A stretch of 64,000 nucleotides of DNA, taken from NCBI GenBank assembly GCA_016193335.1, contig JACPSK010000001.1:175926-239925 (forward strand), in the 5' to 3' direction. Both the position numbers and the translations under genes were made by a program. Source of the DNA: Candidatus Magasanikiibacteriota bacterium (GTDB lineage: Bacteria > Patescibacteriota > Patescibacteriia > Magasanikbacterales > UBA922). This document shows positions 10,017 to 47,445 of the stretch, one piece after another; the first letter of the stretch is position 1; each line of letters opens with the position of its first letter. Under the pieces are notes generated by a model, which saw only the letters and a list, made by a program, of their open reading frames with translations, did not search any database and was not told the DNA's origin.

Positions 10017-10023
10017 ATCATTT

Positions 10024-10710
10024 TCAATTAAGTACGAGTCTAATCGGATCTATGCGATCGAGTTCGTCCGGAGAGAGAAAGTTAGGACGCTCTCTGCCGT
10101 ATACAGCGTGTACCATATGTGTTTTCATAAATTGATTCATGAGATCCGTGAAATAGTATTGTCCGTTTTCGTGACGCACAAGATCATAACGGAAAATATC
10201 CTCATTCAGAACCACGATGCCGGCAGCCGACATATTGGATGAAGGATTCGCCGGTTTTTCAATGACTTCTAGAATTATGTCGTCTTCTCCAATGGAAGCG
10301 ATTCCAGACTGTCTGGGGCTTGCCGAAGGCGCGCAGAGCCAACTGCTGGGGTATGACATACAGCCCTTGATTTCTTCCCGAGTGGGCAGTTCATCGCCGT
10401 AAATAAGCAAAAAACGTTCTTGAGGAGAAAAAAAATCTTTCGTGAGAAATAAAGCCGTTGCCGTTCCATCCAAGACAGCTTGGTCAACGTATCGAATGTT
10501 TTTTCCTTGATACTTGTGTCCTAGATGCTGCCGAATTTTTTTTTGAAGATAGCCAACCACCATAATTACTGAATCCACTTCGGGAGGAAGCGACTCAAAT
10601 ATATAATCAAGAATGGTTTTGTTCCCTACTCTCAACAATGGTTTGGGCATACTGCGCGTCAGCGGGTACATTCTGCGCCCTTCCCCTGCCGCAAGAATAA
10701 CTGTTTTCAT
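10024..10710 (-). CDS. Sugar-1-phosphate nucleotidyltransferase (HddC/mannose-1-P guanylyltransferase-like), copy 1
   Basis: MKTVILAAGEGRRMYPLTRSMPKPLL matches the NTP-transferase signature G-x-G-x-R. An internal ATG at 10710 is preferred over the track start at 10761. It is a paralog of 19995..20714. Confidence 0.7.
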   Translation of the reverse strand: MKTVILAAGEGRRMYPLTRSMPKPLLRVGNKTILDYIFESLPPEVDSVIMVVGYLQKKIRQHLGHKYQGKNIRYVDQAVLDGTATALFLTKDFFSPQERFLLIYGDELPTREEIKGCMSYPSSWLCAPSASPRQSGIASIGEDDIILEVIEKPANPSSNMSAAGIVVLNEDIFRYDLVRHENGQYYFTDLMNQFMKTHMVHAVYGRERPNFLSPDELDRIDPIRLVLN

Positions 10711-10769
10711 AGGAGGCCAGTAAAGTAGTCTTATTCTATAGGGCGGCGGCTCTCCTGTCAACGTGAGAG

Positions 10770-12560: not shown

Positions 12561-12586
12561 ATATCTAGGCCCAAAAAATCAAAAAA

Positions 12587-13258
12587 CTATTTCTTCAAAA
12601 GAATATGAAAACTATTAAAATACCAGGGGCGAAAGCATCTATATAAAAGAAAAAAAGGGAAAAACCAAAAGCCGAACTTTTTTTTGATTTTCATTTCCCT
12701 GATATCTTGAAAAACATAGAATCCCGCTTGCTGCAGGATCCGCTCTGCTTCTGAATATGTCACATAATGCATCGTGATCAGCTTTTGTCTGCCCGCGATT
12801 CCGTCTTCTTTTTGTCTATGCAAAAAATCCAGAACTGGCTCTGTCCAAGAGCGAGGCATCCAGTTGATGCCATACATGTGATAATGATAATCATAAGCGC
12901 CCCAACGATTGTGAAAACTTATGTAGGCTGAACCCCCTGTCTTCAATACTCTGTATAATTCTTTGGACATCAAAAGAGGATCTTCCACGTGTTCAGTAAC
13001 TTCTGAAGCATTTACAAAATCAAACTGCCCGTCGGGATAGGGCAGTTCTTCGGCTTTGGCCGCTCTTAAGTCAAAAGAAATTCCGTTTTGTTCCGCCAGA
13101 TTCTTGATTTCCTCGATATAGACGGGGTTGACTTCAATGCCGGAAACACGAAACCCTCTTTTTGCCATTTCCTTTAAAAAAGTTCCTCTCCCGGCGCCTA
13201 TATCCAAAACCTCGGCGCCCGGATTCAAGTAAGAGGCGCAATAATCTGCGTGTTTCAT
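12587..13258 (-). CDS. Class I SAM-dependent methyltransferase
   Basis: Motif I VLDIGAGRG, with a downstream acidic residue and a post-II motif. Confidence 0.75.
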   Translation of the reverse strand: MKHADYCASYLNPGAEVLDIGAGRGTFLKEMAKRGFRVSGIEVNPVYIEEIKNLAEQNGISFDLRAAKAEELPYPDGQFDFVNASEVTEHVEDPLLMSKELYRVLKTGGSAYISFHNRWGAYDYHYHMYGINWMPRSWTEPVLDFLHRQKEDGIAGRQKLITMHYVTYSEAERILQQAGFYVFQDIREMKIKKKFGFWFFPFFLLYRCFRPWYFNSFHILLKK

Positions 13259-13264
13259 AAAATG

Positions 13265-13999
13265 TTAAGCCAACCAAGCGCTAAAGTCGGATAAAAATTG
13301 TTCCACGACCTCGTCGGTCTTGAAGTGCCGTATCATGTCCGGAAAAAATTTGGGAGGCACGGTTACGATATGAGCTCCTGCCAAAGCCGCGTCGCGAACG
13401 TCCAGGACTCCTCTGATACTCCCGACTATAATTTTTGTGTTCAATCCTGATTGGTCAAGAAGTTTTCGCACCGATTGAGTAACGAAAGACGGATCAAAAT
13501 CCTGAGAATCAAGCACTGATCTTTTTTTCAAATCCTCACGTTTCTCCGCTGACTGATCGTTAAGCCCGCCGTCACGAATCCTGCCCCAAAATAAGCTGAC
13601 ATAACGCGCGCCGGCCCGAGCCGCCATCATAGCTTGGTTACTGTGCATACAGGCAGTGCAATTCACTGATATCCCCTGTTCAGACAGAATTTTTATAGTG
13701 GCAAGCTCATCCCAGCCAACTTGAACTTTTATACTGAGCTCGGGGTATTGAAATTGCTCCACAAACTGCTTGGCCTGACGAAGAATCTCTTGAGGATCCT
13801 TGGAAAAAACTTCCACGCTCAGATGAATGCCGGGCGCGTATCTTTTTATGAGTTCAACTATCTTTCCTATGTGCCCTTCAAATGAAGACTTGGGTTCTTT
13901 GGACAAAAGAGAAGGGTTCGTGGTGACTCCGGTCGCAAACCCACGTTTCAGCGCTTCTTCAATATCGTGAAGATTCGCTGAATCAACGAATATGTTCAT
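13265..13999 (-). CDS. Transaldolase / fructose-6-phosphate aldolase family (TalC/Fsa-like)
   Basis: N-terminal IFVDSANLHDIEEA...GVTTNPSLL and a length of 244 aa match the short transaldolase/Fsa class. Confidence 0.75.
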   Translation of the reverse strand: MNIFVDSANLHDIEEALKRGFATGVTTNPSLLSKEPKSSFEGHIGKIVELIKRYAPGIHLSVEVFSKDPQEILRQAKQFVEQFQYPELSIKVQVGWDELATIKILSEQGISVNCTACMHSNQAMMAARAGARYVSLFWGRIRDGGLNDQSAEKREDLKKRSVLDSQDFDPSFVTQSVRKLLDQSGLNTKIIVGSIRGVLDVRDAALAGAHIVTVPPKFFPDMIRHFKTDEVVEQFLSDFSAWLA

Positions 14000-14195
14000 A
14001 AAATATAATGAAAATTATCTGGCTCTAGTGTATCAAAGATGCCATGTAGGATCAATAGATAACAATAAGTCCTTTACCGGAAGCTCAAAAAATATTAAAC
14101 AGCCGATTTTGCTCGCAAAGAATCAAGACAAATTTTTACTTTAGACATGTACGCCATTTTGGCCAAAAATAGATTTAAAAAAAATAAACAAAAAA

Positions 14196-14232
14196 GCGAG
14201 GCACCGCGCAGCTCGCTTTTGGATTTTGGCGT
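14196..14232. terminator. Candidate bidirectional intrinsic terminator (AGCGAG-loop-CTCGCT flanked by A and T runs)
   Basis: On the minus strand the hairpin is followed by a TTTTTTGTTTATTTTTTTT run, downstream of gmhB. Confidence 0.45.
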
Positions 14233-14247
14233 CTCTTTTATTCAGAA

Positions 14248-14273
14248 CCCCATCTCAAAAATAATTTTGAGCC
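14248..14273. promoter_or_regulatory. 26-bp palindromic intergenic motif CCCCATCTCAAAAATAATTTTGAGCC, copy 2 of 2
   Basis: 25 of 26 positions are identical to 3701..3726. Confidence 0.3.
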
Positions 14274-14279
14274 GTGGTT

Positions 14280-14828
14280 CTACAAAGATAAATAAGGAAT
14301 AGCATCCAATAACCCATTCACCCGAATGTCTGACACCAAGTCTTTATTATATGAGTAATCAATAAGAACTGTCTTAGATCCAACAGCCTCGCCCGCCTCC
14401 GTATCCGCTTTCGTGTCTCCAATAATATAGGAACGGCTGAAATCTATTCCCCATTTTTTACCGGCCTCAAGGAGCATGCCGGGCTTTGGTTTTTTGCAGG
14501 CGCAATTATCATACCGTGTATGCGGACAAACAAATATATCATCAAACGGCAAAGCGGCCACAACGGCCATAATCTTCTGGTACTCTTCTTCAGTGATCAT
14601 GCCATAAGCCCGATCAGGTTGATTGGTGACAAGAATACGCAGATAACCCAGTTCACCCATCCGTTCAAGTGCTTCTTTGACGCCATCACGAAGATGGAAT
14701 TCATGATAAAAAAAAGGAGGGCTAAAACGCACTTTTTTTCCAAGCACTTCAAAATGCTCGCCGCGATCTATGGTCTCGTTAATTACTCCATCGCGATCAA
14801 GAAATACTGCTCGTCTTTTTGTATTCAT
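14280..14828 (-). CDS. gmhB: D-glycero-D-manno-heptose 1,7-bisphosphate phosphatase (HAD family)
   Basis: FLDRDGVIN, VTNQ and CxCxKPKPGM motifs together with GDTKADTEAG are diagnostic of GmhB. The internal start MNTKRRAVFLDRDGVIN is chosen at 14828. Confidence 0.75.
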   Translation of the reverse strand: MNTKRRAVFLDRDGVINETIDRGEHFEVLGKKVRFSPPFFYHEFHLRDGVKEALERMGELGYLRILVTNQPDRAYGMITEEEYQKIMAVVAALPFDDIFVCPHTRYDNCACKKPKPGMLLEAGKKWGIDFSRSYIIGDTKADTEAGEAVGSKTVLIDYSYNKDLVSDIRVNGLLDAIPYLSL

Positions 14829-15519
14829 GGATGCGCTCTTTAAGGCCGAACACGACCAGATGATCCAACACGACATGGAAGCCTTCCACCAGCGGCGTGG
14901 AATCGGCCGGAACCACAATAGGAACATCCACCAAATCTTTCATGGGCCCGCCGTCAAAGCCCGAAAATCCTATGGTTTTGCCTCCCCTTTCTTTTATATA
15001 TTGAAGACCCTTCATGACATTCTGAGACCATTTGCCGGCCAGGTCTGTCCCACTGCCGCCATGGACGCTCAGGGCAATGCCCACGCCTTCTGGCTCATAA
15101 TAGGTTGCTAATTGATTCACATAAATGTTGTCCCAACCCCAGTCATTGATAAAAGCGCTACATTGAGGGATATTGTCCACCAGAGCCATAGCCTTGATCC
15201 CGCGGTCTCCGGGTTTTTCGGTGATAGTCTTCGTAAGATCCGCGGCCAAATGAGTGGCACTCGAAGCTGAGCCTCCATTGCCCATAATATAGACCCAGCG
15301 GCCCGCTTTCCAGGTCTCAAACAAAAGTTCGATGGCCTGATCGAGTTGCCGCGTATACTCTTGTTTTATCCTCTCTATGGTCCGATCCGCATCTTCGAGA
15401 AAAGTAGCGGCAAAAGAAGCATTTTTTTCTTCCATCATAAATGACATGTGATAATCTGAAGCGTCTGATCTCCCGCCATAATCATCGTTATAGACGGACA
15501 GAAAATCGAAATCATGCAA
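14797..15519 (-). CDS. gmhA: Sedoheptulose-7-phosphate isomerase (SIS domain)
   Basis: IMGNGGSASSATHLAADL, SVHGGSG and GFSGFDGG blocks match GmhA/LpcA. The true start may be an internal Met near 15450. Confidence 0.7.
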   Translation of the reverse strand: MHDFDFLSVYNDDYGGRSDASDYHMSFMMEEKNASFAATFLEDADRTIERIKQEYTRQLDQAIELLFETWKAGRWVYIMGNGGSASSATHLAADLTKTITEKPGDRGIKAMALVDNIPQCSAFINDWGWDNIYVNQLATYYEPEGVGIALSVHGGSGTDLAGKWSQNVMKGLQYIKERGGKTIGFSGFDGGPMKDLVDVPIVVPADSTPLVEGFHVVLDHLVVFGLKERIHEYKKTSSIS

Positions 15520-15522
15520 GCT

Positions 15523-16044
15523 CTAATCACAGTGAACGATAGCATGAACCGGCGTATTTTGCAAGCGGGTTCTCCCCGCCATGTTATCCATTTCAATGAC
15601 AAAAACCGCGCCAATAATTTCAGCGCCCGTCTTTTTGACCAATTTAATGGCCGCTGACATGGTTCCGCCCGTGGCCAAAATATCGTCTACCAATAATACC
15701 CTGTCTCCGGACTTCACATCTCTTTCAGAAATCTCTATGACTTGTGAAGCGTATTCATAGCTGTATTCCTGGGATAAAACAGGCGGAGCAATCTTGCCTT
15801 TTTTCCGAATAAGACCAAGACCAGACCCGATCCGATCGGCCAAAGCCGCGGCTATTATAAAGCCTCTCGACTCAATTCCAAGGACCATAGAGATGTCTTT
15901 TTCTCTATATGGAGAAGCGATCTCATCAATAAGTTTTTTATACAAAATCGGGTCAGCCAAAATCGGAGCTATGTCATAGGTCATTATTCCCGTTCTTGGC
16001 CAATCATTAATTTTTCTTATGTGTTCTTCGAAACTCAAATCCAT
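15523..16044 (-). CDS. apt: Adenine phosphoribosyltransferase
   Basis: PRTase motif VLLVDDILATGGT and a length of 173 aa. Confidence 0.8.
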   Translation of the reverse strand: MDLSFEEHIRKINDWPRTGIMTYDIAPILADPILYKKLIDEIASPYREKDISMVLGIESRGFIIAAALADRIGSGLGLIRKKGKIAPPVLSQEYSYEYASQVIEISERDVKSGDRVLLVDDILATGGTMSAAIKLVKKTGAEIIGAVFVIEMDNMAGRTRLQNTPVHAIVHCD

Positions 16045-16049
16045 ATGAA

Positions 16050-17174
16050 TTATTGTATTTCTTTTAGCAAGCCTTGCTCACGCATAGTCTTTTCCGTTAC
16101 CCTAAGAATTGAAGAAACATTTTCAAACTCTGTAATCCATTGCATATAATCATGCACCATATCTTCCAAACCAAAACGAGGCTCCCAACCCAAAGACCGG
16201 AGTTTATCGATATTCATGAGCGCGTGGCGGGATCCTCCCACGCGGTATCTATTGTTGATTTTGGGTTCAAAAGGGACAGCGGCCTCTTTGGCCACGCGCT
16301 CGGCCAACTCAAGGACACGAGTTCTCTCACCGCTTCCCACATTAAAAACTTCAAAATTCGCTTTTTCATCTTCGAGAACACACAGATGCGCCCGGGCCAC
16401 ATCCTGCACATGCACAAAATCTCGGATCTGTCCGGCGTCTTCATTCATTTGAATAGCTTCTTTATCCAAGACATTGGCCGCGAAGGCTCTGAGAGCCCCT
16501 GAATAATAATGCCGAAATGATTGCCTGGGACCAAGCACAATACTGTAGCGCAAAGCCACTCCGGGAATGCGGTACTGTCTTCCCAAAGTCATAAGTAATT
16601 TTTCGCTTGCCCATTTCGATATGGCGTAGGGGATGTTCGGATGAAGTTCGTCGTCTTCACGTTCTGGCAAAGGCTTTACTTCCTGTCCGCAAACGGGACA
16701 GTGCTGTTCCCAATCGCCCTTCTTCATGCGCGCTTCACTGCGCGGCGGGAGATACAGCAGACCGTGCTCCTCGCATTCAAATTTTCCTTCTCCGTAAACA
16801 GACTGGGAAGACGCCATGATAATTTTTGTGATAGACAATTTTTTATCTTCTATGCATTCAAAGAGCAAGGCAAGACTTTTTAGATTCACGTCTATATAGG
16901 TGCTGAAGTCAAGATGATAATCCATGTACGCGGCCAAATGAATCACCGAATCTATGCCTTCAAGAGCTTTGAGCCAGTCTGCCTTTTCGCGCACATCGCC
17001 CCGCATGAATTCAGCTTTTTTATGTATCCAATCCGGTAAAATCCCATTATGAGTCGGGGGGAGAAGAGAATCAAAAATACGAACCCTATACCCGGCCTCA
17101 AGCAAAAGATCGGCCACATGGGAACCTATGAACCCCGCACCACCGGTAAGAAGGACATGATGTTTATCCTTCAT
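16050..17174 (-). CDS. NAD-dependent epimerase/dehydratase with internal zinc-ribbon insertion
   Basis: [13 protein letters not shown] Rossmann motif, a YxxxK motif (YAISK) and a CPVCG-containing insert. Confidence 0.75.
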   Translation of the reverse strand: MKDKHHVLLTGGAGFIGSHVADLLLEAGYRVRIFDSLLPPTHNGILPDWIHKKAEFMRGDVREKADWLKALEGIDSVIHLAAYMDYHLDFSTYIDVNLKSLALLFECIEDKKLSITKIIMASSQSVYGEGKFECEEHGLLYLPPRSEARMKKGDWEQHCPVCGQEVKPLPEREDDELHPNIPYAISKWASEKLLMTLGRQYRIPGVALRYSIVLGPRQSFRHYYSGALRAFAANVLDKEAIQMNEDAGQIRDFVHVQDVARAHLCVLEDEKANFEVFNVGSGERTRVLELAERVAKEAAVPFEPKINNRYRVGGSRHALMNIDKLRSLGWEPRFGLEDMVHDYMQWITEFENVSSILRVTEKTMREQGLLKEIQ

Positions 17175-18165
17175 ATATTTGTTCTACGATTTTAAGAACA
17201 CTGAGCGCGTCTTTGCCGCTTGGAACCGGGTCTCTTCCCTCTTCAATGGCCAAGAGCAACTCTCTCATCTCCCGAACAAAAGAAAGCTCCGCGTCAGGGT
17301 TACACTCAAATATTTCTTCTCGCGGCAGAGCGCTATATGTTTCATCTCGAATTCCGAAGATTACTTTTTCAGTGCCGCCGTACTTTCTGCCCAGACCTTC
17401 AACATGAATATACCCGAAACTTCCATAAATTTCAAAACGATGCAAAGGTTTCCAATTCGACCAGCTGACATGAATGGAGGCGAGCTGTTTTTTTTTGCTT
17501 TTGAGGAGCAGAAAGGCATTATCTTCCACTTGCGCGGTCCAATGCAAATTTTCCACAAAACCCTTTACTTCGGCGATTTCTCCGAAAAAAGAGATAACCA
17601 TATCAACCATATGCACGCCCTGGTCAATGAGTTCTCCGCCTCCGGCCCATTCTTTGTTCATGCGCCATTCAGTGTTCATACCTTTGCGCGCTCCAAAACC
17701 ATACACTGCTCGAATAAATTGGATGTCTCCGATTTTCCCTTCGGTGAATAATTTTCGCGCGAGCAAAAAACCTTCGTGGAAACGATGATTGAAGCCGGCC
17801 ATATAGCGCAGATTCCGTGCTTGAGCAAAATTCAAAAGATCAAAAAGTTCCGTACTCGAAACGGCGCAAGGCTTTTCTGACATAACGTGTTTCCCGGCCG
17901 ATAGAGCGGCTCTGGAAATGGAGGCCAGATACTTGTGGGGCGTAGCCGCTATGACTATATCTATGTCTGTGCGTTTCAAAAGCTCTTCATAATCCGTATA
18001 TGCTTGGCAAGCAGGACCATAGACTCCGGCGAGTTCACGCGCCTTATCGCCATCTGTGTCCAGAACTGCCAAAAGATTCACCTCTCCCATCGAGGAGAGG
18101 GCCTTTACCCAGCGTTTTCCTATGCCTCCGGCTCCAACGAGCGCCACTGCGTATTTACCAATCAT
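17164..18165 (-). CDS. Gfo/Idh/MocA-family oxidoreductase
   Basis: VALVGAGGIGKRW Rossmann motif and the EKP motif (SEKPCA). Confidence 0.7.
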   Translation of the reverse strand: MIGKYAVALVGAGGIGKRWVKALSSMGEVNLLAVLDTDGDKARELAGVYGPACQAYTDYEELLKRTDIDIVIAATPHKYLASISRAALSAGKHVMSEKPCAVSSTELFDLLNFAQARNLRYMAGFNHRFHEGFLLARKLFTEGKIGDIQFIRAVYGFGARKGMNTEWRMNKEWAGGGELIDQGVHMVDMVISFFGEIAEVKGFVENLHWTAQVEDNAFLLLKSKKKQLASIHVSWSNWKPLHRFEIYGSFGYIHVEGLGRKYGGTEKVIFGIRDETYSALPREEIFECNPDAELSFVREMRELLLAIEEGRDPVPSGKDALSVLKIVEQIYEG

Positions 18166-18991
18166 ATCCTCTGTCTTTAGGTTTAATTCTTCGAGCGGTA
18201 TATATATCAGAAGTCATTATGTCTTCACGATGTTTTAGTATGGTATCAGGATCGTCCCAACGGGCGGCAAACAATTTACCTGTCACTCCGGCCATTTCTT
18301 CTGACGCTAAAAATAAACAAAATTGAGCGGCCAGCTCCGGACCTATGGTTTCCATTTTACCGGAAACCTGAGCACAGGCGTCTTGGTACACTGTTTCCCC
18401 CGCGCGTTCCGGACCCGCGGCTATTATACTATGCACAAAACCGGAATTGATAAGTCCCGGATATATGGCATTAACTGATATACATTCACCCGAAAGTTCC
18501 ACGGCAACAGACTCGGCAAAGCGGATCACCGCGGCTTTTGAAGCGGCATAGGAACTTAAATGCGGCAAAGGGCCTTCGCCCCCACCGGCGAATACGATCA
18601 CTTTCCCGTTCTCGCTACGCCTGAGCAAAGGCAAAGCATATTTCACTGCGTGCATGGTCCCAAATACATTTACTCTGAAAGCATCCTGCCAGTGATCGGA
18701 ATCCGCGTTTGTCAAAGCATTGATCTCGCCATAGATGCCGGCTGTTGTAACGAGAACGTTCAGATACTTGATCCGTGATTCAAGACCTGTAAAAAGGGCG
18801 CGCATGCCGCTAGCATCCGACACGTCTCCCACACAAACCTGGCAGGCTTCTCCCAATCTTTCTTTTATCTCATGCAACTTTTTTTCGTCGCGTCCCAGAA
18901 TAAAAACATGATAGCCCGCGTCCACAAAATGTTTCGCGACAGAGGAGCCTATCACTCCGCTTCCTCCGGTTATAAGCGCTGTTTGAATCAT
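18155..18991 (-). CDS. Classical short-chain dehydrogenase/reductase
   Basis: TGGSGVIGSSVA glycine motif and a YAASKAA catalytic YxxxK motif. Confidence 0.75.
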   Translation of the reverse strand: MIQTALITGGSGVIGSSVAKHFVDAGYHVFILGRDEKKLHEIKERLGEACQVCVGDVSDASGMRALFTGLESRIKYLNVLVTTAGIYGEINALTNADSDHWQDAFRVNVFGTMHAVKYALPLLRRSENGKVIVFAGGGEGPLPHLSSYAASKAAVIRFAESVAVELSGECISVNAIYPGLINSGFVHSIIAAGPERAGETVYQDACAQVSGKMETIGPELAAQFCLFLASEEMAGVTGKLFAARWDDPDTILKHREDIMTSDIYTARRIKPKDRGYDW

Positions 18992-19998
18992 ATGCTGTTC
19001 ATTTCTCTCGGCCTATGAATCATTACCTGCGTGCCGCTCGCTTCAACCCTATAGGGGACCTCATGGAATTTGTATTCTGTAAATAATCGGCGAACCGCAT
19101 CTTGAGATCCTTCCTGACAATAGACAAGAAAAAACCCGCCCCCGCCGGCACCGATGATTTTCCCCCCAAGAGCTCCACAGCGTTTCCCTTTTTCATATAC
19201 TTCGTCAAAGACATCATTACTCATCCGATCGGACATTTTTCTCTTGGTCTGCCAATGTTCGTCCATCAGACGTCCAAAGGTATCCAGGTCTCCCTGTTCA
19301 AAAGCCGATAAAATTCCCTTTCCAATCCGCTTTGTTTCGTGTTTGAGAGCAATCTTATCCGGTTTCTCGGCCCGTATATCATCTTGCTGTTCTGCCAAGA
19401 CCGCGGTGCTCGAGCGACGCATTGCCGTGTTGAAGAGCAAAGTCCGGCGTTCAAAGGCCTCTTGAGTCGAACGGGAAATTTTAGCGGGTAGCAGGCTTAC
19501 CGTACCATTTGCGGCTATGTCCAGCACGCAAAAATTTCCGAAAGACGCAAGATAAAAATCTTGTTTTCCGTCCGGCAGACCCAAATCTTCCGTGGCAATT
19601 TCAAAAGCTTCTTCAGCAAGCTGCAAACGGGAAAGATTTTCCCCTTTCAGAGCATGAAGGCCGTTCAAAAGACCCACCAAATAACTCGCGGAACTGCCCA
19701 AACCGGTGCCACCGGTAACATCAGCCATGGAAGAAATTTCAATCTGTTTGACAATTCCGGTCCGTTGAAGAGCGGCACGGGCAAGGTTATGCTTTAAATC
19801 CATCAGACGCTCGACCTCCTCGCTATCGCTATATTTCAAGCGAATCATCTGGTCGACAGGAGGACGGTTCAGACCGATATACATGTACAGGTTAAGCGTA
19901 ACCGCAAAAATAAAGCCGCCATGCTGTTCATAATAAGCGGGAAGATCAGTAGAACCTCCGCCAAGGGATAATCGGAAAGGCGTTCTGGTCAATATCAT
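18988..19998 (-). CDS. hddA: GHMP sugar kinase, D-glycero-D-manno-heptose 7-phosphate kinase-like
   Basis: N-terminal TRTPFRLSLGGGSTDL, GHMP motif TGGTGLGSSASYLVG and a C-terminal GAGGGGF motif. Confidence 0.65.
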   Translation of the reverse strand: MILTRTPFRLSLGGGSTDLPAYYEQHGGFIFAVTLNLYMYIGLNRPPVDQMIRLKYSDSEEVERLMDLKHNLARAALQRTGIVKQIEISSMADVTGGTGLGSSASYLVGLLNGLHALKGENLSRLQLAEEAFEIATEDLGLPDGKQDFYLASFGNFCVLDIAANGTVSLLPAKISRSTQEAFERRTLLFNTAMRRSSTAVLAEQQDDIRAEKPDKIALKHETKRIGKGILSAFEQGDLDTFGRLMDEHWQTKRKMSDRMSNDVFDEVYEKGKRCGALGGKIIGAGGGGFFLVYCQEGSQDAVRRLFTEYKFHEVPYRVEASGTQVMIHRPREMNSI

Positions 19999-20714
19999 AG
20001 AGCGCTCGAGTGAATTACATGGTTATCTTTTCCAAAGCGTTCTTTTAATAAGTGCTCGGCTCTGATCAAATCTTCTTTGCTTGAAATCCCTCCTATCACA
20101 TCCTTGGCCACAACCGCCACCATACGCCTTTTTTTCGCGAGCTGATCAACCATACTGCTCAGATAATATTCATCGTTCGCCCCAGACTGCGGTTCATAGT
20201 CAAAAATGTCTTTATCCAAAACCATCAAGCCACCCACGATAAGACCATGGAAAAGATGCTGCGGTTTTTCGATCACGCTCAGAATCGTGCCGTCCTCCCC
20301 GGTAATAACAACTCCATGGTTCCAAGGATCGTTCACTTCACAACACAAAATGCTCAAAGGATATTTCAAACAAGCATCAAAATCAGCCCGCCTTGGCAAT
20401 TCATCTCCATACAGCAACACAAAGCGATCATCTCCAATAAAGGGTTTGGCGGCCAAAAAACTATAAGCGGTTCCGAGCGCCGATCCTTCGACATAACTAA
20501 TGGAACAGCCGTGAAACACGGAACCGCAATATTCACGGATTTGTTCACCCAGATAATGCACCACTATGACGGCTTCAGTGATTTCTTCGGGAAAAGATAA
20601 AAAAATATGATCCAAAAAAGTTTTGCCTGCCACAGACAGCAAAGGTTTAGGCGTCTTGAGCGTAAGCGGCCTCATGCGTTTTCCCTCTCCGGCCGCGAGT
20701 ATAACGGCTTTCAT
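19995..20714 (-). CDS. Sugar-1-phosphate nucleotidyltransferase (HddC-like guanylyltransferase), copy 2
   Basis: MKAVILAAGEGKRMRPLTLKTPKPLL. There is a 4-bp overlap with hddA downstream and with the GT2 gene upstream. Pathway context (gmhA, gmhB, hddA) suggests heptose-1-P is the substrate. Confidence 0.65.
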   Translation of the reverse strand: MKAVILAAGEGKRMRPLTLKTPKPLLSVAGKTFLDHIFLSFPEEITEAVIVVHYLGEQIREYCGSVFHGCSISYVEGSALGTAYSFLAAKPFIGDDRFVLLYGDELPRRADFDACLKYPLSILCCEVNDPWNHGVVITGEDGTILSVIEKPQHLFHGLIVGGLMVLDKDIFDYEPQSGANDEYYLSSMVDQLAKKRRMVAVVAKDVIGGISSKEDLIRAEHLLKERFGKDNHVIHSSAL

Positions 20715-21643
20715 ATTCCTTTTGTGATAATTTTTTCGCGGATCACATACGGTGTTTGTTTGCTTGTTTCAAAATACATGCGCAACATCATCTCGGCGAG
20801 CAGACCGAGCATAACAAACAAAATGGCAGACAAGACAAAAAAAATGCTTAGAATGGGAAGAGGCGTCTGACCAAAATTACGCAAGTCCGCAAGTTTTAAG
20901 TACAAAGCCAATACGGCGACTATAAATCCGATCACGAATGAAACAAAACCGATACTGCCGAAAAACACGAGAGGTCTGCCGGTCATCGCGAGCAAAAACT
21001 TCACCGTGGCCAAATCAAAAAGATTTTTAACCGCTTTCATGAAATAATGCTTGGACAAACCAAACTTGCGTTCGTGATGACGCACGGGCACTTCCGCAAC
21101 CCGGGCTCCGCGACCATGAAGGTAAGCGGGCAAAAACACATGCATCTCACCATAAAGACGCACCCCTTGAATAACTTCTTTTCGGTATGCTTTCATGGCG
21201 CAGGCAGAATCATGCAAAGCCAAGCCGCTCACTTTGGCCGTAAGCCAATTAGCGAACCTGGACAAAATTTTTCTGTTCATCGAATCTTGTCTGTCCTTAC
21301 GCCAACCGGAAACCACGTCATAGCCTTCTCTCATTTTCGCGACTAAGACCGGAATATCGGCAGGGTCATTTTGCAAATCTCCGTCCATGGTTATGATAAT
21401 ATCGCCCTTGGCCTCGTGAATTCCGGCGTCTAACGCCGAAGTCTGTCCAAAATCCATGCTCAAGGCGAGAATACATACCTCCGGGAGCATTTTTAGTTGC
21501 TGAACCGTGTCATCGGTAGAACCGTCATCTATAAATATAATCTCAAAAATGTCGGCCACTCGTTTCATGGAATCGAGAATTTTTTCGTGCAGCAACTTGA
21601 CATTATCACGTTCATTGTATACTGGTATCACGATTGAAATCAT
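20711..21643 (-). CDS. GT2 polyprenyl-phosphate glycosyltransferase (DPM1/GtrB/ArnC-like), copy 2
   Basis: IVIPVYNE...IDDGSTDDT...MDGDLQ motifs and two C-terminal TM helices. It is a paralog of 9090..10016. Confidence 0.75.
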   Translation of the reverse strand: MISIVIPVYNERDNVKLLHEKILDSMKRVADIFEIIFIDDGSTDDTVQQLKMLPEVCILALSMDFGQTSALDAGIHEAKGDIIITMDGDLQNDPADIPVLVAKMREGYDVVSGWRKDRQDSMNRKILSRFANWLTAKVSGLALHDSACAMKAYRKEVIQGVRLYGEMHVFLPAYLHGRGARVAEVPVRHHERKFGLSKHYFMKAVKNLFDLATVKFLLAMTGRPLVFFGSIGFVSFVIGFIVAVLALYLKLADLRNFGQTPLPILSIFFVLSAILFVMLGLLAEMMLRMYFETSKQTPYVIREKIITKGI

Positions 21644-21818: not shown

Positions 21819-22556
21819 TCAATCTTGCTTTTTACGGGCAACACACAAAAGACTGGTCCCAAACGGCATGGGGATACAACTATCCAAAAACAACAAAAAA
21901 TTAAGCACGTATTTCTTCATTGCAGAACCAAAACCTTTGGTACGAGGGCCTATCGGATAAGACCGTTTTAATATCCTGCTAAAAAGCAAACAAATAGGAA
22001 TTAAGGTAAAACCGAAATAACGCAAGATACGTATCTCTAGGAGAGATTGTGAATTGATGAGACGGCGGAGTGTCAATTTTGAATAACGCCGGAAATGGCC
22101 CAATTCTCTGTCATGATACCCAAAAAGAAACTCCAGGGCGGGAACGGTAACAATAAGCATGCCCCCCGGCTTGACTAGTCTCGATAATTTCGCAAGGGCA
22201 GAATAATCGGCCTCAATATGTTCCAGAACATCGGTGGCTATAACACAGTCGTATTGATCCTTATCAGTGAAATTTTCGATAGAAGAGACTTCAAACACGC
22301 AGTCTTTTAAGCCCTTGCGCTCGGCAGCGGTCCTCGCGAGCCCTATATACTCTTCCGCCGGATCGATTCCGAACACACGGTGTCCCTTGTCTGAGAGTAA
22401 AAAAGACAGCTCTCCTGAACCGCATCCGGCATTCAAAATATGCAAAGATCTTTTGTCCTTCAGACAATCAGCTATCAAGCGATATTTCTTTTCGGCATAA
22501 GGATCCTGTTCTCTGATCAATAAATCCCGGTATTGATATTCATTATAATGATTCAT
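21819..22556 (-). CDS. Class I SAM-dependent methyltransferase
   Basis: Motif I ILNAGCGSGELS. The internal start MNHYNEYQ at 22556 avoids an overlap with the upstream gene. Confidence 0.7.
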   Translation of the reverse strand: MNHYNEYQYRDLLIREQDPYAEKKYRLIADCLKDKRSLHILNAGCGSGELSFLLSDKGHRVFGIDPAEEYIGLARTAAERKGLKDCVFEVSSIENFTDKDQYDCVIATDVLEHIEADYSALAKLSRLVKPGGMLIVTVPALEFLFGYHDRELGHFRRYSKLTLRRLINSQSLLEIRILRYFGFTLIPICLLFSRILKRSYPIGPRTKGFGSAMKKYVLNFLLFLDSCIPMPFGTSLLCVARKKQD

Positions 22557-22564
22557 AGTTGTAT

Positions 22565-24088
22565 TTACCAATAAGTATAAAACAATATTTGAAAGGCAAA
22601 ACTTTGAAATATGAGTAAGCACAAAAGCGAGGCGGATTTCGTTTCAGACTCTTGTTTGATCATAGAGGACAGTACCGGCAAAAACAATGGAAACACAAAA
22701 AGCCAGAGCCGCCCAACCTCACCCTGAAATATGCCTATGGCCAAAAGAAAAAGAACAAAAACATACCCTATATAATGATAATGTCGAGCCGTCTTATTTT
22801 TATCACGAAAACGCTGAAAAAAACCGGAAATATGCGCAATGCCCATGGCGATAGCAAAAGCAAGTATATTCATGAGGAAAAAAACCACATAGATTCCCAA
22901 GGAAGAAAAATTACTCTGCACTGTTTCGGAATTAGCGCCTCTCGCCGCGAGAAAATTTTCCAGTATCGAATAACCGGTCGAAACGTACAGAAAAGCAAAA
23001 AAACTCAGAAAAAAAACAAGACCAAGACTCAAATTCAGCGAAAAATCGTAAGCCGATCGTGTCGGATTATTTTTGTAATGCTTTTGCCATATGTGCCACA
23101 ACATATACAAAAAAACAGGAGCGACAAGCAAAAAAAGGAAATTCGAAAATAAAGCAAAAGCCGCGGCCAAACCGCCAAAGGCAGATCCAATCCGGGATGA
23201 TTTCCAGCCTTTGAGGCAGAGCCCCAAACTCAGCCATGTAATGAACAGAAAAAAAGCCTCAAGAGAACTCACGCTCATCAATACCAGGCCCGGAAAAAAA
23301 ATAAACAACTGAAGCGAAGATCTCAGGTCATTTTCATCCATGAATTCCCTCCAAAAAAGATAGATCGGAAAGACAGAAAGACCTGAAACCAAAGCCAAGA
23401 CAATGGCCACGCCCGGATATTCAAATTTGAAGAACTGCCGGAGCCCGTACAAAAACAAAATATAACCCGGCGGATGGGTGCTGCTGTGCCGCGCGTAAGA
23501 AAGATCGGGATCTGAAACGGTCGCGACATAATCATGGAGAAAACTCTTTGTATTTTCAATATGGGGAAGATAGCCAGTGTACTCCCAATAACTACGCGAT
23601 AAGGAATCCGTGACGCTCGCCCAACCCGAACGCATGCCGTTTATCCCCAAGCTAAACAGTGTAAATACAAAGGCCAAAACGGCCAAGTAAGGCCAAATTT
23701 TCCATTTTTTGAAATATTTCCGGAAGGCAAAAAATAAAAAAACGATAAAAACCGTGTACAAAACCCACCAGGGAGCCAAAATCTGCGGAGAAGGAAGGGC
23801 ATACATAATCAGTCTGTCTGCTATATACCCTTTATATGAGAGGCTGAGAACATATTTCCCCAAAACAACCAAGAACATTAAAAACATGCTGTAATAAAAT
23901 ATTTGCCGCGTTTCTTTTTCTTTCCAAAAAAAATGATGGTAAACAAGGCAAAAAAGTATGGTTGCCAATGTCAAAATAAGGCCGGCCCAGAGCACAGACT
24001 CAGCCTTTTCATAGAGCGCCAGACGGTACTCCTCCCCGAACAGCGATGAAATGAGATTCAGAAATATACTCTTAAAATAGTCCGCCAT
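22565..24088 (-). CDS. Polytopic membrane protein, possibly GT-C-type glycosyltransferase
   Basis: About 11 TM helices and an HPPGY loop motif. No soluble catalytic domain is present. Confidence 0.4.
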   Translation of the reverse strand: MADYFKSIFLNLISSLFGEEYRLALYEKAESVLWAGLILTLATILFCLVYHHFFWKEKETRQIFYYSMFLMFLVVLGKYVLSLSYKGYIADRLIMYALPSPQILAPWWVLYTVFIVFLFFAFRKYFKKWKIWPYLAVLAFVFTLFSLGINGMRSGWASVTDSLSRSYWEYTGYLPHIENTKSFLHDYVATVSDPDLSYARHSSTHPPGYILFLYGLRQFFKFEYPGVAIVLALVSGLSVFPIYLFWREFMDENDLRSSLQLFIFFPGLVLMSVSSLEAFFLFITWLSLGLCLKGWKSSRIGSAFGGLAAAFALFSNFLFLLVAPVFLYMLWHIWQKHYKNNPTRSAYDFSLNLSLGLVFFLSFFAFLYVSTGYSILENFLAARGANSETVQSNFSSLGIYVVFFLMNILAFAIAMGIAHISGFFQRFRDKNKTARHYHYIGYVFVLFLLAIGIFQGEVGRLWLFVFPLFLPVLSSMIKQESETKSASLLCLLIFQSFAFQILFYTYW

Positions 24089-29738: not shown

Positions 29739-29744
29739 TGTGGT

Positions 29745-30815: not shown

Positions 30816-30824
30816 ACAAAAAAT

Positions 30825-31766: not shown

Positions 31767-31859
31767 AAAATCAAGCTCTAAAAAGACCCTGAAACTACAA
31801 ACATAATAACATAAACCCATCTTTATGACAATGGCTGCGGAATCAAAAAACAGCGGCTT

Positions 31860-34056: not shown

Positions 34057-34074
34057 ATTAGTGAATCTATCTTT

Positions 34075-47404: not shown

Positions 47405-47445
47405 AATGCTTTTTGTTTTGCTTGGGTTATACTTCAACTACCGGA

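Follow-up and report, generated by a model that had tools for sequence, protein, structure and literature searches.

The genes described here probably, if by no wide measure of confidence, make up a long conserved system resembling the arn operon, in which NDP-heptose would be made, tailored, loaded onto undecaprenyl phosphate and passed to a GT-C enzyme. They lie in a 64,000-nucleotide stretch of DNA (the window), of which 2.7-44 kb is a single strand-run of glycan genes (Table 1). The family-level identities of the genes, their architecture, the conserved catalytic residues and the cross-phylum synteny are matters of observation. The cluster, which is conserved in many ultra-small CPR/Patescibacteria and some Elusimicrobia, combines an apparently complete heptose activation pathway with an enzyme for charging a membrane lipid carrier with single sugars; this suggests, without proving, that cell-surface glycosylation draws on a lipid-linked heptose. 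The initial annotation had held such a donor to be undescribed, and a full-text literature search found no description of lipid-linked heptose.

Table 1. Features of the gene run (positions in the window)
Feature	Position	Strand	Basis or remark
NDP-sugar dehydrogenase, UDP-Glc/GDP-Man dehydrogenase family	5729..6979	-	NCBIfam TIGR03026, 269 bits (above cutoff of 190)
FAD-dependent oxidoreductase, DAO family	7044..8147	-	Pfam DAO and NAD_binding_8
Gfo/Idh/MocA oxidoreductase after GT2-2, UDP-GlcNAc 3-dehydrogenase-like	8144..9112	-	Pfam GFO_IDH_MocA
GT2-2, second ArnC/GtrB-type polyprenyl-phosphate glycosyltransferase	9090..10016	-	NCBIfam ArnC model; own CPR ortholog group
NT2, sugar-1-P nucleotidyltransferase, sister paralog of NT1	10024..10710	-	Pfam NTP_transferase; Arch_glmU 150 bits
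596-aa polytopic membrane protein, large C-terminal soluble part	10770..12560	-	About 10-14 hydrophobic segments
MT2, second SAM methyltransferase	12587..13258	-	Pfam Methyltransf_11/23/25
Transaldolase/fructose-6-P aldolase family (TAL/FSA)	13265..13999	-	Pfam TAL_FSA 141 bits; NCBIfam fsa_talC_mipB 148 bits (cutoff 246)
HAD-IIIA phosphatase, GmhB-like	14280..14927	-	NCBIfam GmhB NF006506, 100 bits (cutoff 178)
SIS_2 protein, divergent GmhA-like sedoheptulose-7-P isomerase	14797..15519	-	Pfam SIS_2; NCBIfam gmhA
Adenine phosphoribosyltransferase within operon	15523..16044	-	NCBIfam NF002636, 192 bits (cutoff 125, passed)
Extended SDR, epimerase/dehydratase family, Cys-rich insertion	16050..17174	-	NCBIfam, sub-cutoff matches
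Gfo/Idh/MocA oxidoreductase, putative tailoring enzyme	17164..18165	-	NCBIfam, sub-cutoff matches
Classical SDR oxidoreductase, putative tailoring enzyme	18155..18991	-	Pfam adh_short 140 bits
GHMP kinase, HddA/WcbL heptose-kinase clade	18988..19998	-	Pfam GHMP_kinases_N/C; NCBIfam HddA
NT1, short sugar-1-phosphate nucleotidyltransferase	19995..20714	-	Pfam NTP_transferase
GT2-1, polyprenyl-phosphate glycosyltransferase, ArnC/GtrB architecture	20711..21643	-	GT-A domain and two C-terminal TM helices
MT1, SAM-dependent methyltransferase, between GT-C and GT2-1	21819..22622	-	Pfam Methyltransf_31/11/25
507-aa polytopic membrane protein, GT-C fold	22565..24088	-	AF2 model and Foldseek; directly upstream of GT2-1 region

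Two nucleotidyltransferase-glycosyltransferase pairs

The initial annotation had seen in NT1 with GT2-1, and NT2 with GT2-2, two copies of one module, in which an 'HddC-like' nucleotidyltransferase is coupled to a glycosyltransferase that loads a lipid carrier. The open reading frames, all on the minus strand, their coordinates, overlaps and domain classes proved real on ORF checking and Pfam search. Overlaps of 4 bp (ATGA) chain GT2-1, NT1, the GHMP kinase and the classical SDR, so that NT1 is flanked by one on either side and the kinase belongs to the chain, as had been claimed. NT2 is separated by 7 nt from GT2-2 downstream, and the order of transcription is inverted (GT2 then NT in the first module, NT then GT2 in the second).

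Pfam Glycos_transf_2 matches GT2-1 and GT2-2 alike, and both are full-length, ArnC/GtrB-type members of the polyprenyl-phosphate glycosyltransferase family, as the initial annotation had it. The NCBIfam ArnC model matches residues 2-305 of the 310 in GT2-1 and the full length of GT2-2 (190 bits); the PDB matches of GT2-1 are to ArnC (E about 7e-53), then GtrB (2e-25) and PfDPMS (1.5e-20). GT2-1 keeps the PVYNE, DDGS and DGDLQN motifs and the nucleotide, metal and Und-P ligands of ArnC (P7/Y9/E11, D40, D87/D89/Q91, R115/R118/R124, R192/S197/K198). Two strong C-terminal hydrophobic helices are present in each protein (231-249 and 264-282 in GT2-1).

The 'HddC-like' label did not hold. In NCBIfam, NT1 matches Arch_glmU best (139 bits), then AglF (106), which is a UDP-glucose pyrophosphorylase; the HddC model, with a cutoff of 300 bits, gives NT1 66 and NT2 50. 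The best PDB match of NT1 is MurU (5e-20), with Yersinia HddC at 4e-10. To judge by sequence, NT1 and NT2 are generic, archaeal GlmU-N/AglF-like enzymes rather than specifically HddC-like ones, NT1 being closer to UDP/dTDP-type archaeal nucleotidyltransferases than to HddC, and naming them heptose enzymes from sequence alone is not supported. It is from its context that NT1 is proposed to act on heptose-1-P.

Nor does a duplicated module stand as such. NT1 and NT2 are 42% identical (E 4e-59), and their groups are sister paralogs in the tree (about 41% identity mutually, against 18-28% to other nucleotidyltransferase types). GT2-1 and GT2-2 share 45% identity (E 6e-105). Their ortholog groups do not pair as sisters in a rough NJ tree; the two groups have a mean identity of 43% to each other, and the GT2-1 group one of 45% to generic ArnC-like GT2s (GT2-2 orthologs show 52-72% identity). 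Since the GT2 groups are non-sister while the NT groups are sister, duplication of the two genes as a unit is unsupported, and the two pairs look like old, separate pairings.

Candidate heptose and tailoring genes

The link to heptose turned out to be stronger than had been supposed from the kinase, in that genes for GmhA-like, GmhB-like and TAL/FSA proteins lie in the same operon, which carries an apparently complete heptose activation pathway. The top NCBIfam match of the kinase is HddA, with fucokinase second (70 bits), and its best four PDB matches are all heptose kinases (3k85, 4usk, 4usm and 4n3o; E 2.5e-39 to 2.8e-33), about 22 orders of magnitude ahead of fucokinase, the next in the list (5.9e-11). 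For the SIS protein, gmhA is the top NCBIfam match and GmhA accounts for all twelve best PDB matches; the GmhA motifs are kept, but with Glu to Asp at a catalytic/metal position and a loop insertion. The HAD protein (182 aa in the source record, the true start probably being Met34, about 14828) passes the HAD-IIIA and histidinol-phosphatase-domain models TIGR01656 (99.7 against 84) and TIGR01662 (71 against 44.6). The TAL/FSA protein is a candidate supplier of sedoheptulose-7-P, and its gene is kept beside SIS/HAD in L009, L092-L094, L175, L012 and L177 (L numbers denote related loci).

Every enzyme scores below its NCBIfam equivalog cutoff (in bits: ArnC 207/529, HddA 136/600, gmhA 88/209, GmhB 100/178, HddC 66/300), and the substrates of the enzymes are therefore not established by these scores, which, like the Glu to Asp change and loop insertion of the SIS protein, count against the reading preferred here. 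Might the pathway then activate a sugar other than D-glycero-D-manno-heptose (a different ketose-phosphate-derived aldose, say, or a free sugar obtained by salvage that is phosphorylated at C1), which the GT2 would load onto the lipid carrier? The low scores and the altered SIS protein would fit, as would the NUDIX and GNAT genes that replace the nucleotidyltransferase gene next to the kinase in L006 (L097 also has a NUDIX gene) and the unexplained adenine phosphoribosyltransferase (its gene is also within the operon of L004, L092 and L093) and additional oxidoreductases. We nevertheless find this improbable: four independent proteins, the kinase, SIS, HAD and TAL, each best match a heptose-pathway or sedoheptulose-7-P-forming enzyme, the kinase by the large interval just given, and the co-localisation of TAL/FSA is hard to account for without a C7 sugar-phosphate.

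Genes for putative tailoring enzymes accompany these. The classical SDR gene is kept in all related loci, and those for the extended SDR (sub-cutoff scores of 132 bits with GalE, 107 with dTDP-glucose dehydratase and 92 with heptose 6-epimerase) and the adjacent Gfo/Idh/MocA enzyme (inositol 2-dehydrogenase-like 122 and UDP-GlcNAc 3-dehydrogenase-like 92 bits, both below cutoff) are kept in relatives. MT1 (245 aa in the source record, the real start probably being Met23, about 22556) has a conserved position in L004 and L175, and MT2 follows TAL also in L009, L092 and L093. Downstream of GT2-2, the second Gfo/Idh/MocA gene (NCBIfam NF040723, 110 bits against a cutoff of 450) is kept in L092 and L093; the FAD-dependent oxidoreductase gene, overlapping the preceding gene by 4 bp, is kept in L092, L093 and L094. 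Members of the Pfam family of the NDP-sugar dehydrogenase occur in or beside the heptose core of L004, L006, L009, L175, L176, L012 and L177; tblastn, which gave identities of about 21-23% or no match, shows no clear orthologs of the window's gene among them.

Conservation across lineages and the possible fate of a heptose product

A GT2-1-clade gene and the kinase gene occur together in 10/10 non-redundant lineages or arrangements: the window, L004 (Magasanikbacteria), L006 (Giovannonibacteria), L009 (Peregrinibacteria), L096, L175 (Minisyncoccia), L176, L012/L013 (Elusimicrobia), L177 and L097. The recurring set, in CPR classes and Elusimicrobia, is GT2, kinase and tailoring oxidoreductases, usually with NT, SIS, HAD and TAL. 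At generic ArnC-like GT2s the kinase is near in just 1/104 loci (Fisher p = 1.6e-13), and any sugar-1-P nucleotidyltransferase in 3/104; to that extent the coupling of NDP-sugar to lipid-P-sugar formation is unusual, as had been remarked. The comparison took the GT2 rather than the kinase as its starting point, and this counts against the preferred reading, as does L097, where no NT, SIS or HAD gene was found within the sequence range examined.

Gene order is shuffled among these lineages (Giovannonibacteria have the GT2 next to the kinase, Elusimicrobia have it between SDR and GFO), so the association is maintained by selection, beyond simply inherited gene order. This bears on whether the adjacency and overlaps of NT and GT2 genes are mere operon compaction in a small genome, with only general glycan-locus membership as a link. 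Of 20 junctions inspected, 8 have overlaps of 4 to 23 bp, which are therefore no peculiarity of the NT-GT2 pair and would agree with compaction, and so would the single strand-run and its uniform composition; but an association that outlasts reshuffling in all ten lineages, a second phylum included, and is nearly absent at control loci makes that explanation very improbable, the synteny statistics being strongly against it.

In L006, L012 and L177 the NT slot holds a ManB/HddC-like type that adjoins SIS-HAD and is non-orthologous to NT1, and L157 encodes an NT-SIS fusion; the nucleotidyltransferase step is therefore tied to the heptose pathway. Where relatives have a GDP-type enzyme in this slot, a further point against the preferred reading, the GT2 is still 68% identical, which is awkward if it must recognise the nucleotide.

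A larger challenge, which we consider unlikely though deserving of weight, is that NDP-heptose, tailored or not, is used by a cytoplasmic GT4, soluble GT2 or GT9 for an Und-PP-linked or ABC-exported glycan. GT2-1 would then carry another sugar (Glc, GlcNAc, or the product of NT1 acting as a UDP-Glc/UDP-GlcNAc pyrophosphorylase) and the GT-C would decorate the same glycan, co-localisation reflecting a shared final product and no substrate-product link. GT9 is the heptosyltransferase family. The window holds seven GT4s and soluble GT2s as possible cytoplasmic users, a GT2/GT9 fusion is found in L177, and L157 has a GT4 within its heptose operon, all of which weigh against the preferred reading; ABC-2 transporter genes occur in L012 and L177, the best family matches of NT1 are not to HddC, and classical GtrB systems draw on housekeeping UDP-Glc (PMC11127046). 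Against this, heptose genes are so seldom found beside generic GtrB/ArnC-like GT2s, GT2-1 stays in the heptose and tailoring block through several rearrangements in two phyla, and in Giovannonibacteria the GT2 adjoins the kinase while the sole nucleotidyltransferase seen in the cluster (ManB/HddC-like) adjoins SIS-HAD.

Proposed route and likeness to the arn operon

The initial annotation had supposed that the lipid-linked sugar feeds GT-C enzymes of the island, and such proteins are present: two PMT_2 proteins and the 507-aa protein, which in L004, L006 and L009 likewise has an ortholog upstream of GT2-1. The latter has no Pfam match itself, but PF13231 PMT_2 is present in 5/22 of its homologs, and it aligns with PMT_2 proteins (hhalign E 8e-5). 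The top Foldseek PDB matches of its AF2 model (pLDDT 87, pTM 0.88) are all GT-C (AftA, STT3, EmbB, Pmt4, ArnT, ALG9), making it a candidate extracytoplasmic transferase using a Pren-P-sugar. The 596-aa protein gave no Pfam, NCBIfam or PDB profile match, was negative by hhalign against GT-C profiles, and has a single-sequence AF2 model of pLDDT 44.5; its orthologs precede NT2 in L092 and L093 and lie downstream of GT2-2 in L094. A search for a GtrA/ArnEF-like flippase found none, which also counts against the preferred reading.

All substrates in the preferred route, notably a heptose nucleotide as the donor of GT2-1, derive from homology and gene context. Sedoheptulose-7-P from TAL/FSA would be converted by the GmhA-like protein to D-glycero-D-manno-heptose-7-P, phosphorylated at C1 by the HddA/WcbL-type kinase, relieved of its 7-phosphate by the GmhB-like phosphatase and made into NDP-heptose by NT1. 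Tailoring of the sugar by the SDR, Gfo/Idh/MocA enzyme and extended SDR would either precede or follow its transfer to the lipid, and relatives may use an NDP-sugar dehydrogenase and methyltransferases as well. GT2-1, an inverting GT-A enzyme with two TM helices, would put the heptose or heptose-derived sugar on undecaprenyl phosphate; after flipping, the upstream GT-C-fold protein would pass it to an acceptor outside the cytoplasm, for example a wall polymer, an S-layer protein or a pilin. The other pair, NT2 and GT2-2 (their order is kept in L092-L094), with the Gfo/Idh/MocA and FAD oxidoreductases after it, may be another Pren-P-sugar branch of the same super-cluster that evolved separately. 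What was first observed in this DNA is partly confirmed, and its first interpretation partly supported.

The arn operon is the textbook precedent for making an NDP-sugar and a lipid-P-sugar in one coupled system, so that in principle the coupling is not unusual. The Pren-P glycosyltransferase embedded in that operon uses the product of the neighbouring NDP-sugar tailoring genes (10.1101/2025.01.29.634835), which argues against GT2-1 carrying a sugar unrelated to its neighbours. As in the arn (L-Ara4N) operon, a Pren-P glycosyltransferase stands here among NDP-sugar tailoring genes, in this case probably with heptose.

The GT2 proteins and the organization of their genes

The initial annotation proposed that the two GT2 glycosyltransferases, GT2-1 (module 1) and GT2-2 (module 2), load a sugar onto polyprenyl phosphate (Pren-P), and profile searches agree with this at the level of family. 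GT2-1 and GT2-2 each cover the NCBIfam ArnC model from end to end (207 and 190 bits), the next models being PgfS (139 bits) and then AglJ. In PDB searches, the best matches of GT2-1 were three ArnC entries (E about 1e-52; residues 2–305 against ArnC 10–314, with the TM region inside the alignment), followed by GtrB (2e-25) and Pyrococcus DPMS (PfDPMS, 5mlz; 1.5e-20). Both proteins have two strong C-terminal hydrophobic helices (hydropathy peaks at 231–249 and 264–282 in GT2-1). The residues assigned to nucleotide, metal and Und-P binding in the ArnC cryo-EM paper (10.1101/2025.01.29.634835) can be followed through the alignment: the DXD motif D87-G-D89-L-Q91-N of GT2-1 lies over ArnC D100-A-D102-L-Q104-N; P7/Y9/E11 and D40 correspond to P15/Y17/E19 and D48, D87/D89/Q91 to D100/D102/Q104, and R192/S197/K198 to R205/S210/K211; and R115, R118 and R124 match R128/R131/R137, which in ArnC bind the acceptor phosphate, as R205 binds the nucleotide (same paper). 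The sole differing ligand residue is ArnC N77, replaced by D64. These conserved residues, together with the matches to ArnC (full-length), GtrB and DPMS, support the assignment of GT2-1 and GT2-2 to the Pren-P glycosyltransferase family. They are uninformative about the nucleotide used by GT2-1, because ArnC and GtrB (UDP) and PfDPMS (GDP) bind their nucleotides similarly (10.1101/2025.01.29.634835). That either protein is ArnC proper is not supported, given scores well short of the equivalog cutoff (529) and the absence of an arnA/B/D/T context, the window annotation containing no formyltransferase, ArnB-type aminotransferase or ArnD.

Features of the window discussed in the text
Feature	Position (nt)	Strand	Remarks
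Repeat-containing ORFs and 476-aa protein	43931–47437	minus	
UbiA-family protein, HAD hydrolase, GT2, two PMT_2 proteins	30240–35415	minus	PMT_2 proteins at 32593–35415
ORFs, probably gene remnants	29523–29909	both	adjoin rmlC
rmlC	28947–29504		
AsnB-type glutamine amidotransferase	25237–27105	minus	
507-aa membrane protein	22565–24088	minus	two genes upstream of GT2-1
GT2-1	20711–21643	minus	module 1
NT1	19995–20714	minus	module 1
GHMP kinase	18988–19998	minus	
SDR	18155–18991	minus	
Extended SDR	16050–17174	minus	374 aa
Adenine phosphoribosyltransferase (APRT)	15523–16044	minus	
SIS_2 protein	14797–15519	minus	GmhA-like
HAD-IIIA phosphatase	14280–14927	minus	GmhB-like
Transaldolase/FSA	13265–13999	minus	
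596-aa membrane protein	10770–12560	minus	
NT2	10024–10710	minus	module 2
GT2-2	9090–10016	minus	module 2
Gfo/Idh/MocA oxidoreductase, then DAO-type FAD oxidoreductase	7044–9112	minus	follow GT2-2

Nearly all the genes between about 2.7 and 44 kb are on the minus strand and are transcribed from high to low coordinates; the GC content of the region is uniform (42–47%), so its composition gives no sign of recent or horizontal acquisition. ORF calls and a check of the junctions confirmed the annotated genes and the overlap chain that includes the GHMP kinase: 4-bp ATGA overlaps join GT2-1, the sugar-1-phosphate nucleotidyltransferase NT1, the kinase and an SDR. The Pfam classes were also as annotated (Glycos_transf_2 for the GT2s, 107 and 115 bits; NTP_transferase for NT1 and NT2; GHMP_kinases_N/C for the kinase). 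Two further overlaps, of 11 bp each, follow the SDR, and since short overlaps are common in the operon, that between NT1 and GT2-1 is no special evidence of coupling, contrary to what had been suggested.

In module 2, NT2 precedes GT2-2 by 7 nt, the inverse of the GT2-then-NT order of module 1. The two pairs had been taken for a duplicated two-gene module (GT2s 45% identical, NTs 42%). This holds for the nucleotidyltransferases, which form sister paralogue groups (about 41% identity to each other versus 18–28% to other NTs), but in a distance tree the GT2-1 clade has neighbours at least as near among generic bacterial ArnC-like GT2s (45% identity) as in the GT2-2 clade (mean 43%). A single two-gene duplication therefore does not clearly explain the origin of both pairs, as judged from sequence comparison. 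All four genes have separate orthologue groups in several CPR classes, from which it follows that both pairs are ancient.

The order NT2, GT2-2, Gfo/Idh/MocA oxidoreductase, DAO-type FAD oxidoreductase is kept in two related loci (L092 and L093). In a third, L094, the NT2–GT2-2 pair and the DAO gene are retained with other genes between (DegT and GT2 genes separate DAO from GT2-2), and no homologue of the Gfo/Idh/MocA gene was detected there. In the window and in all three loci the block is just downstream of the SIS_2, HAD and transaldolase genes, with a methyltransferase and a membrane protein of about 590 aa nearby; within this super-cluster, module 2 would seem to be a second branch leading to a Pren-P-sugar. 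It is pure speculation, but an FAD and NAD(P) enzyme pair placed after a Pren-P glycosyltransferase recalls the DprE1/DprE2 epimerization of a lipid-linked sugar.

The putative heptose pathway and its conservation

The closest characterized relatives of the kinase, which has both GHMP domains, are heptose kinases: HddA is its top NCBIfam match (136.5 bits against a cutoff of 600; 144–145 bits for orthologues in the Giovannonibacteria locus L006 and the Elusimicrobia locus L012), and its first four PDB matches are heptose kinases (3k85, 4usk, 4usm and 4n3o; 2.5e-39 to 2.8e-33), with fucokinase next at 6e-11. Downstream in the operon are genes for a Gfo/Idh/MocA oxidoreductase, an extended SDR, APRT, a SIS_2 protein, a HAD-IIIA phosphatase and a transaldolase/FSA. 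GmhA is the top NCBIfam match of the SIS_2 protein (88 bits, cutoff 209) and accounts for its twelve best PDB matches; GNGGSA, ND[YW]G and the catalytic C-terminal His are retained, the catalytic/metal Glu is replaced by Asp, and there is an insertion in the STSG loop. The phosphatase passes TIGR01656 (99.7 bits, cutoff 84) and TIGR01662 (71 bits, cutoff 44.6), and its top match is GmhB at scores under the cutoffs (NF006506, 100 versus 178; TIGR00213, 84 versus 150). With the kinase, the GmhA-like and GmhB-like proteins, transaldolase/FSA and a nucleotidyltransferase in one operon, there is thus a candidate enzyme for each step from sedoheptulose-7-phosphate to NDP-heptose, all of them divergent and below equivalog cutoffs.

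A UDP-GlcA-derived pentose (the logic of ArnA and UXS) was considered as the donor for GT2-1, since NDP-sugar dehydrogenases recur in these loci. It was set aside as the leading explanation because of the extended SDR, which scores only 28–34 bits with ArnA and UXS-type models versus 107–132 bits with GalE and dTDP-glucose dehydratase, and because of the lack of an aminotransferase or formyltransferase in the window. The extended SDR also has an insertion carrying two Cys pairs (CEEHG...CPVCG), around which its Pfam and NCBIfam matches are split and which is possibly a zinc ribbon. The APRT gene, between those for the extended SDR and the GmhA-like protein here and in Magasanikbacteria and Peregrinibacteria loci, is bona fide (192 bits versus a cutoff of 125); its presence in the operon might be a hint of an adenine nucleotide.

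The description of NT1 and NT2 as HddC-like was not sustained. Their best NCBIfam match is the archaeal GlmU-type N-terminal domain (Arch_glmU; 139 and 150 bits), and AglF scores 106 and 107 bits (cutoff 400); HddC (cutoff 300), which ranks seventh for NT1 with 66 bits and reaches 50 bits with NT2, is outscored by Arch_glmU, AglF, RmlA-long and MurU. Likewise, in the PDB, MurU (5e-20), RmlA and ST0452-type proteins all precede Yersinia HddC (5xhw, 4e-10) as matches of NT1. Taken on their own, then, these sequences would not make NT1 and NT2 heptose enzymes. In the Giovannonibacteria and Elusimicrobia loci and L177, the operon has a ManB/HddC-like nucleotidyltransferase of a different type (man1P_GTase, 119–149 bits; HddC, 71–99 bits), and in L157 a nucleotidyltransferase is fused to a SIS_2 domain. 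The occurrence of non-orthologous nucleotidyltransferases in one operon, together with this fusion, supports a place for the NT step within the heptose pathway. A difficulty is that any change of nucleotide between lineages must be tolerated by a GT2 that stays 68% identical.

Orthologues of GT2-1 (56–73% identity) were found in genomes named Magasanikbacteria, Giovannonibacteria, Peregrinibacteria, Minisyncoccia and Parcubacteria, and the conservation of this GT2 across several CPR classes makes it likely that the cluster has a core envelope function. The associated genes recur in varied arrangements, as tabulated here.

Gene arrangements in related loci (MT, methyltransferase; DH, dehydrogenase; GFO, Gfo/Idh/MocA oxidoreductase; TAL, transaldolase/FSA; SIS, SIS_2 protein; HAD, phosphatase)
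Locus	Arrangement
L004, L005 (Magasanikbacteria)	MT, GT2, NT, kinase, NDP-sugar DH, SDR, GFO, extended SDR, APRT, SIS, HAD, TAL
L009 (Peregrinibacteria-named), L175 (Minisyncoccia)	same gene set as L004 and L005
L006 (Giovannonibacteria)	kinase directly after GT2; NT relocated beside SIS–HAD
L176 and L094 (one contig)	GT2, radical SAM, NT, kinase, on to HAD, TAL, SIS, then NT2, GT2-2
L096	kinase and TAL inverted
L012, L013 (Elusimicrobia MAGs), L177 (shared layout)	SIS, TAL, epimerase, NT, kinase, DH, SDR, (MT), GT2, GFO; then ABC-2 transporter genes in L012 and L177, with a PMT_2 GT-C also in L177
L097	GT2, 614-aa membrane protein, MT, kinase, GFO, extended SDR, SDR; no NT, SIS or HAD within the fetched range

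A B12-binding radical SAM gene stands beside GT2 or NT genes in L092, L093, L176 and L097 and is absent from the window, and NUDIX or NUDIX-GNAT genes adjoin the kinase in L006 and L097.

Scans of genome and metagenome contigs with GT2-1 yielded, among the matches listed, mostly generic ArnC-like GT2s of 42–48% identity; they provide a negative control and do not amount to a survey of CPR. The control comprised 104 such loci from other phyla among the matches listed (40–48% identity, at least 8 kb fetched for each). A kinase lies near the GT2-1-clade gene in all 10 of the lineages or arrangements sampled, counting one locus for each, versus 1 of the 104 controls (Fisher p = 1.6e-13). The same single control locus, L157, is the only one with kinase, SIS_2 and HAD genes near the GT2; any nucleotidyltransferase was found in three. 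As synteny was sampled outward from the GT2, the result establishes that genes of the GT2-1 clade keep company with heptose genes; it does not establish the converse.

On L157, an apparently high-GC metagenome contig, genes for a methyltransferase, a generic ArnC-like GT2 (45% identical) and a 909-aa ORF converge (positions 8942–19537) on a heptose operon of GT4, GHMP kinase, NT–SIS_2 fusion and HAD genes; the co-location could be a coincidence or an independent instance of the association. The end of the L177 locus (18022–20927) encodes large GT2-domain proteins, one of them also with a GT9 (heptosyltransferase family) domain, and ABC-2 transporter genes are present in the locus; a cytoplasmic transferase may be a further user of heptose in that lineage. 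Such cases bear on the main alternative, in which NDP-heptose is consumed by cytoplasmic GT4, GT2 or GT9 enzymes, with GT2-1 carrying a common sugar that decorates the same glycan. The GT2/GT9 fusion of L177, the GT4 gene within the L157 heptose operon, the many GT4 genes of the window and the AglF-like profile of NT1 all speak for it; on balance we think it rather unlikely, and prefer to see GT2-1 itself as the user of the heptose.

GT-C proteins and other features of the island

The product of the heptose pathway had been suggested to feed many GT-C enzymes in the island; three such proteins could be verified. Two are PMT_2 proteins. The third, the 507-aa membrane protein, lacks a Pfam match of its own (PMT_2 was found in 5 of 22 homologues), but its AF2 model, built on homologues (pLDDT 87, pTM 0.88), gave only GT-C proteins as top Foldseek matches in the PDB (AftA, STT3/AglB, EmbA/B/C, Pmt4, ArnT and ALG3/6/9), so the modelled structure points to a GT-C fold. 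Alignment by hhalign of the 596-, 677-, 581-, 476- and 570-aa proteins with GT-C profiles was negative. PDB profile searches with the 507- and 596-aa families gave no match, and the single-sequence AF2 model of the 596-aa protein has a pLDDT of 44.5, too low to be of use; these five large membrane proteins are left without an assignment.

A three-component system has been defined as a Pren-P-sugar synthase, a flippase and a GT-C (PMC11127046). Two of these three parts are present, as an ArnC/GtrB-type Pren-P glycosyltransferase and a nearby GT-C; no candidate for a small flippase of the GtrA, ArnE-F or SMR type was seen among the small window ORFs examined (those under 60 aa were not searched exhaustively).

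Further upstream, a UbiA-family protein and a HAD hydrolase follow a GT2 and the two PMT_2 GT-Cs. The top NCBIfam match of the former is a generic UbiA-family prenyltransferase, the second to fourth being decaprenyl-phosphate phosphoribosyltransferases at about 69–74 bits (one model has a cutoff of 234). This group looks like a pentofuranose-type three-component system as described in PMC11127046, in which case there may be three distinct routes to lipid-linked sugar donors in the island. Adjoining rmlC are probable gene remnants: by eye, a 108-aa ORF looks like the C-terminal end of dTDP-glucose 4,6-dehydratase, and the end of an overlapping plus-strand ORF is like that of an IS30-type transposase. 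The AsnB-type amidotransferase gene, upstream of the GT4, GT-C, MT and GT2-1 block, is conserved in L004, L009 and L175; taken together with the recurrence of an NDP-sugar dehydrogenase, it could point to a uronamide sugar. Finally, a motif, NIYASSTAFLDYVSST, is repeated in two ORFs close to the gene for the 476-aa protein, whose N-terminus is signal-like and whose linker is Gly-rich and of the PAPAPE type. None of these has a Pfam match; from their sequence features they may be surface proteins and candidate targets of glycosylation.

Proposed role and comparison with known systems

Family-level identities and synteny are observed here; all substrates are inferred. By analogy with the arn operon, NDP-heptose would be made through the transaldolase, GmhA-like, HddA-like, GmhB-like and NT steps and tailored by the oxidoreductases and methyltransferases; GT2-1 would load the tailored heptose onto undecaprenyl phosphate, and a GT-C would use it outside the membrane. 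We would give an even chance to the general proposal that many Patescibacteria (CPR) and some Elusimicrobia make polyprenyl-phosphate-heptose, or a tailored (maybe oxidized or methylated) derivative, for dedicated GT-Cs that build or decorate the envelope, with the second, paralogous NT/Pren-P glycosyltransferase branch providing a further uncommon sugar on a lipid carrier, which the Gfo/FAD pair might modify while lipid-linked, in the manner of DprE1/DprE2.

The known Pren-P-monosaccharide donors form a short list (Glc, GlcNAc, Man, Gal, L-Ara4N, GalN, GalA and Araf/Ribf). In keeping with the initial annotation, the full-text literature searched, whose incomplete coverage means that absence is not proof, covering undecaprenyl-, polyprenyl-, dolichol- or otherwise lipid-linked heptose as well as heptose in Patescibacteria, gave no description of such a donor or of this cluster. 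If the proposal is true, such a heptose would represent a class of lipid-linked monosaccharide donor not described before and would add a new class of sugar to that list; it would be simple to approach biochemically (five or six soluble enzymes and one small membrane glycosyltransferase, all expressible in E. coli) and would predict heptose-containing surface glycans as a CPR marker. CPR envelope chemistry is almost unknown and very few members have been cultivated. The interest lies in the wide conservation of the cluster across a radiation that is poorly understood, and in a directly testable hypothesis. Heptose metabolites are innate-immune agonists in other bacteria, which is why a widespread heptose pathway outside LPS could matter for host-associated CPR.

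Several known systems share parts of this arrangement. The Haloferax Agl system also pairs a short nucleotidyltransferase (AglF, a UDP-Glc pyrophosphorylase) with lipid-phosphate-hexose synthases (AglJ and AglD). The window GT2s score 81 and 72 bits with AglJ (cutoff 325), and the window host, unlike Haloferax, is bacterial; to our knowledge the Agl cluster has no heptose-pathway context. DPMS/Ppm1 with PMT share the Pren-P glycosyltransferase fold, and PMT_2-type GT-Cs are present in the island, but PfDPMS aligns only to the GT-A domain of GT2-1 (residues 2–199), whose TM arrangement, with two C-terminal helices, is of the ArnC/GtrB type. The GtrA/GtrB/Gtr* systems and streptococcal PgfS resemble the window in combining a Pren-P-monosaccharide synthase (GT-A plus TM anchor) with a GT-C. 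They differ in that GtrB uses housekeeping UDP-Glc without linked sugar-activation genes (PMC11127046), whereas the window links a complete sugar-1-phosphate/NDP-sugar pathway and its small ORFs examined include no GtrA-like flippase.

The GDP-D-glycero-alpha-D-manno-heptose pathway of capsules and S-layer glycans (GmhA, HddA, GmhB and HddC) has the same four enzyme classes that occur in one window operon, and its enzymes are the best matches, below equivalog cutoffs, of the window kinase, isomerase and phosphatase, although the window NT departs from the HddC type. Cytoplasmic glycosyltransferases are the direct users of GDP-heptose in the known systems, and the literature searched gave no link between this pathway and a Pren-P glycosyltransferase. 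The arn (pmrHFIJKLM) operon differs in that homologues of ArnA, ArnB, ArnD and ArnE/F were not identified in the window, where GT2-1 remains under the ArnC cutoff, the sugar pathway is GmhA/HddA/GmhB-like rather than UDP-GlcA-derived, and the host belongs to the CPR, bacteria in which lipid A is not expected. Nevertheless, GT2-1 and GT2-2 align with ArnC over their full length (about 45% identity in the GT-A domain) and share its DXD motif, Arg triad and two TM helices, and the logic is the same: a Pren-P glycosyltransferase set amid dedicated genes for NDP-sugar synthesis and tailoring, with a GT-C nearby.
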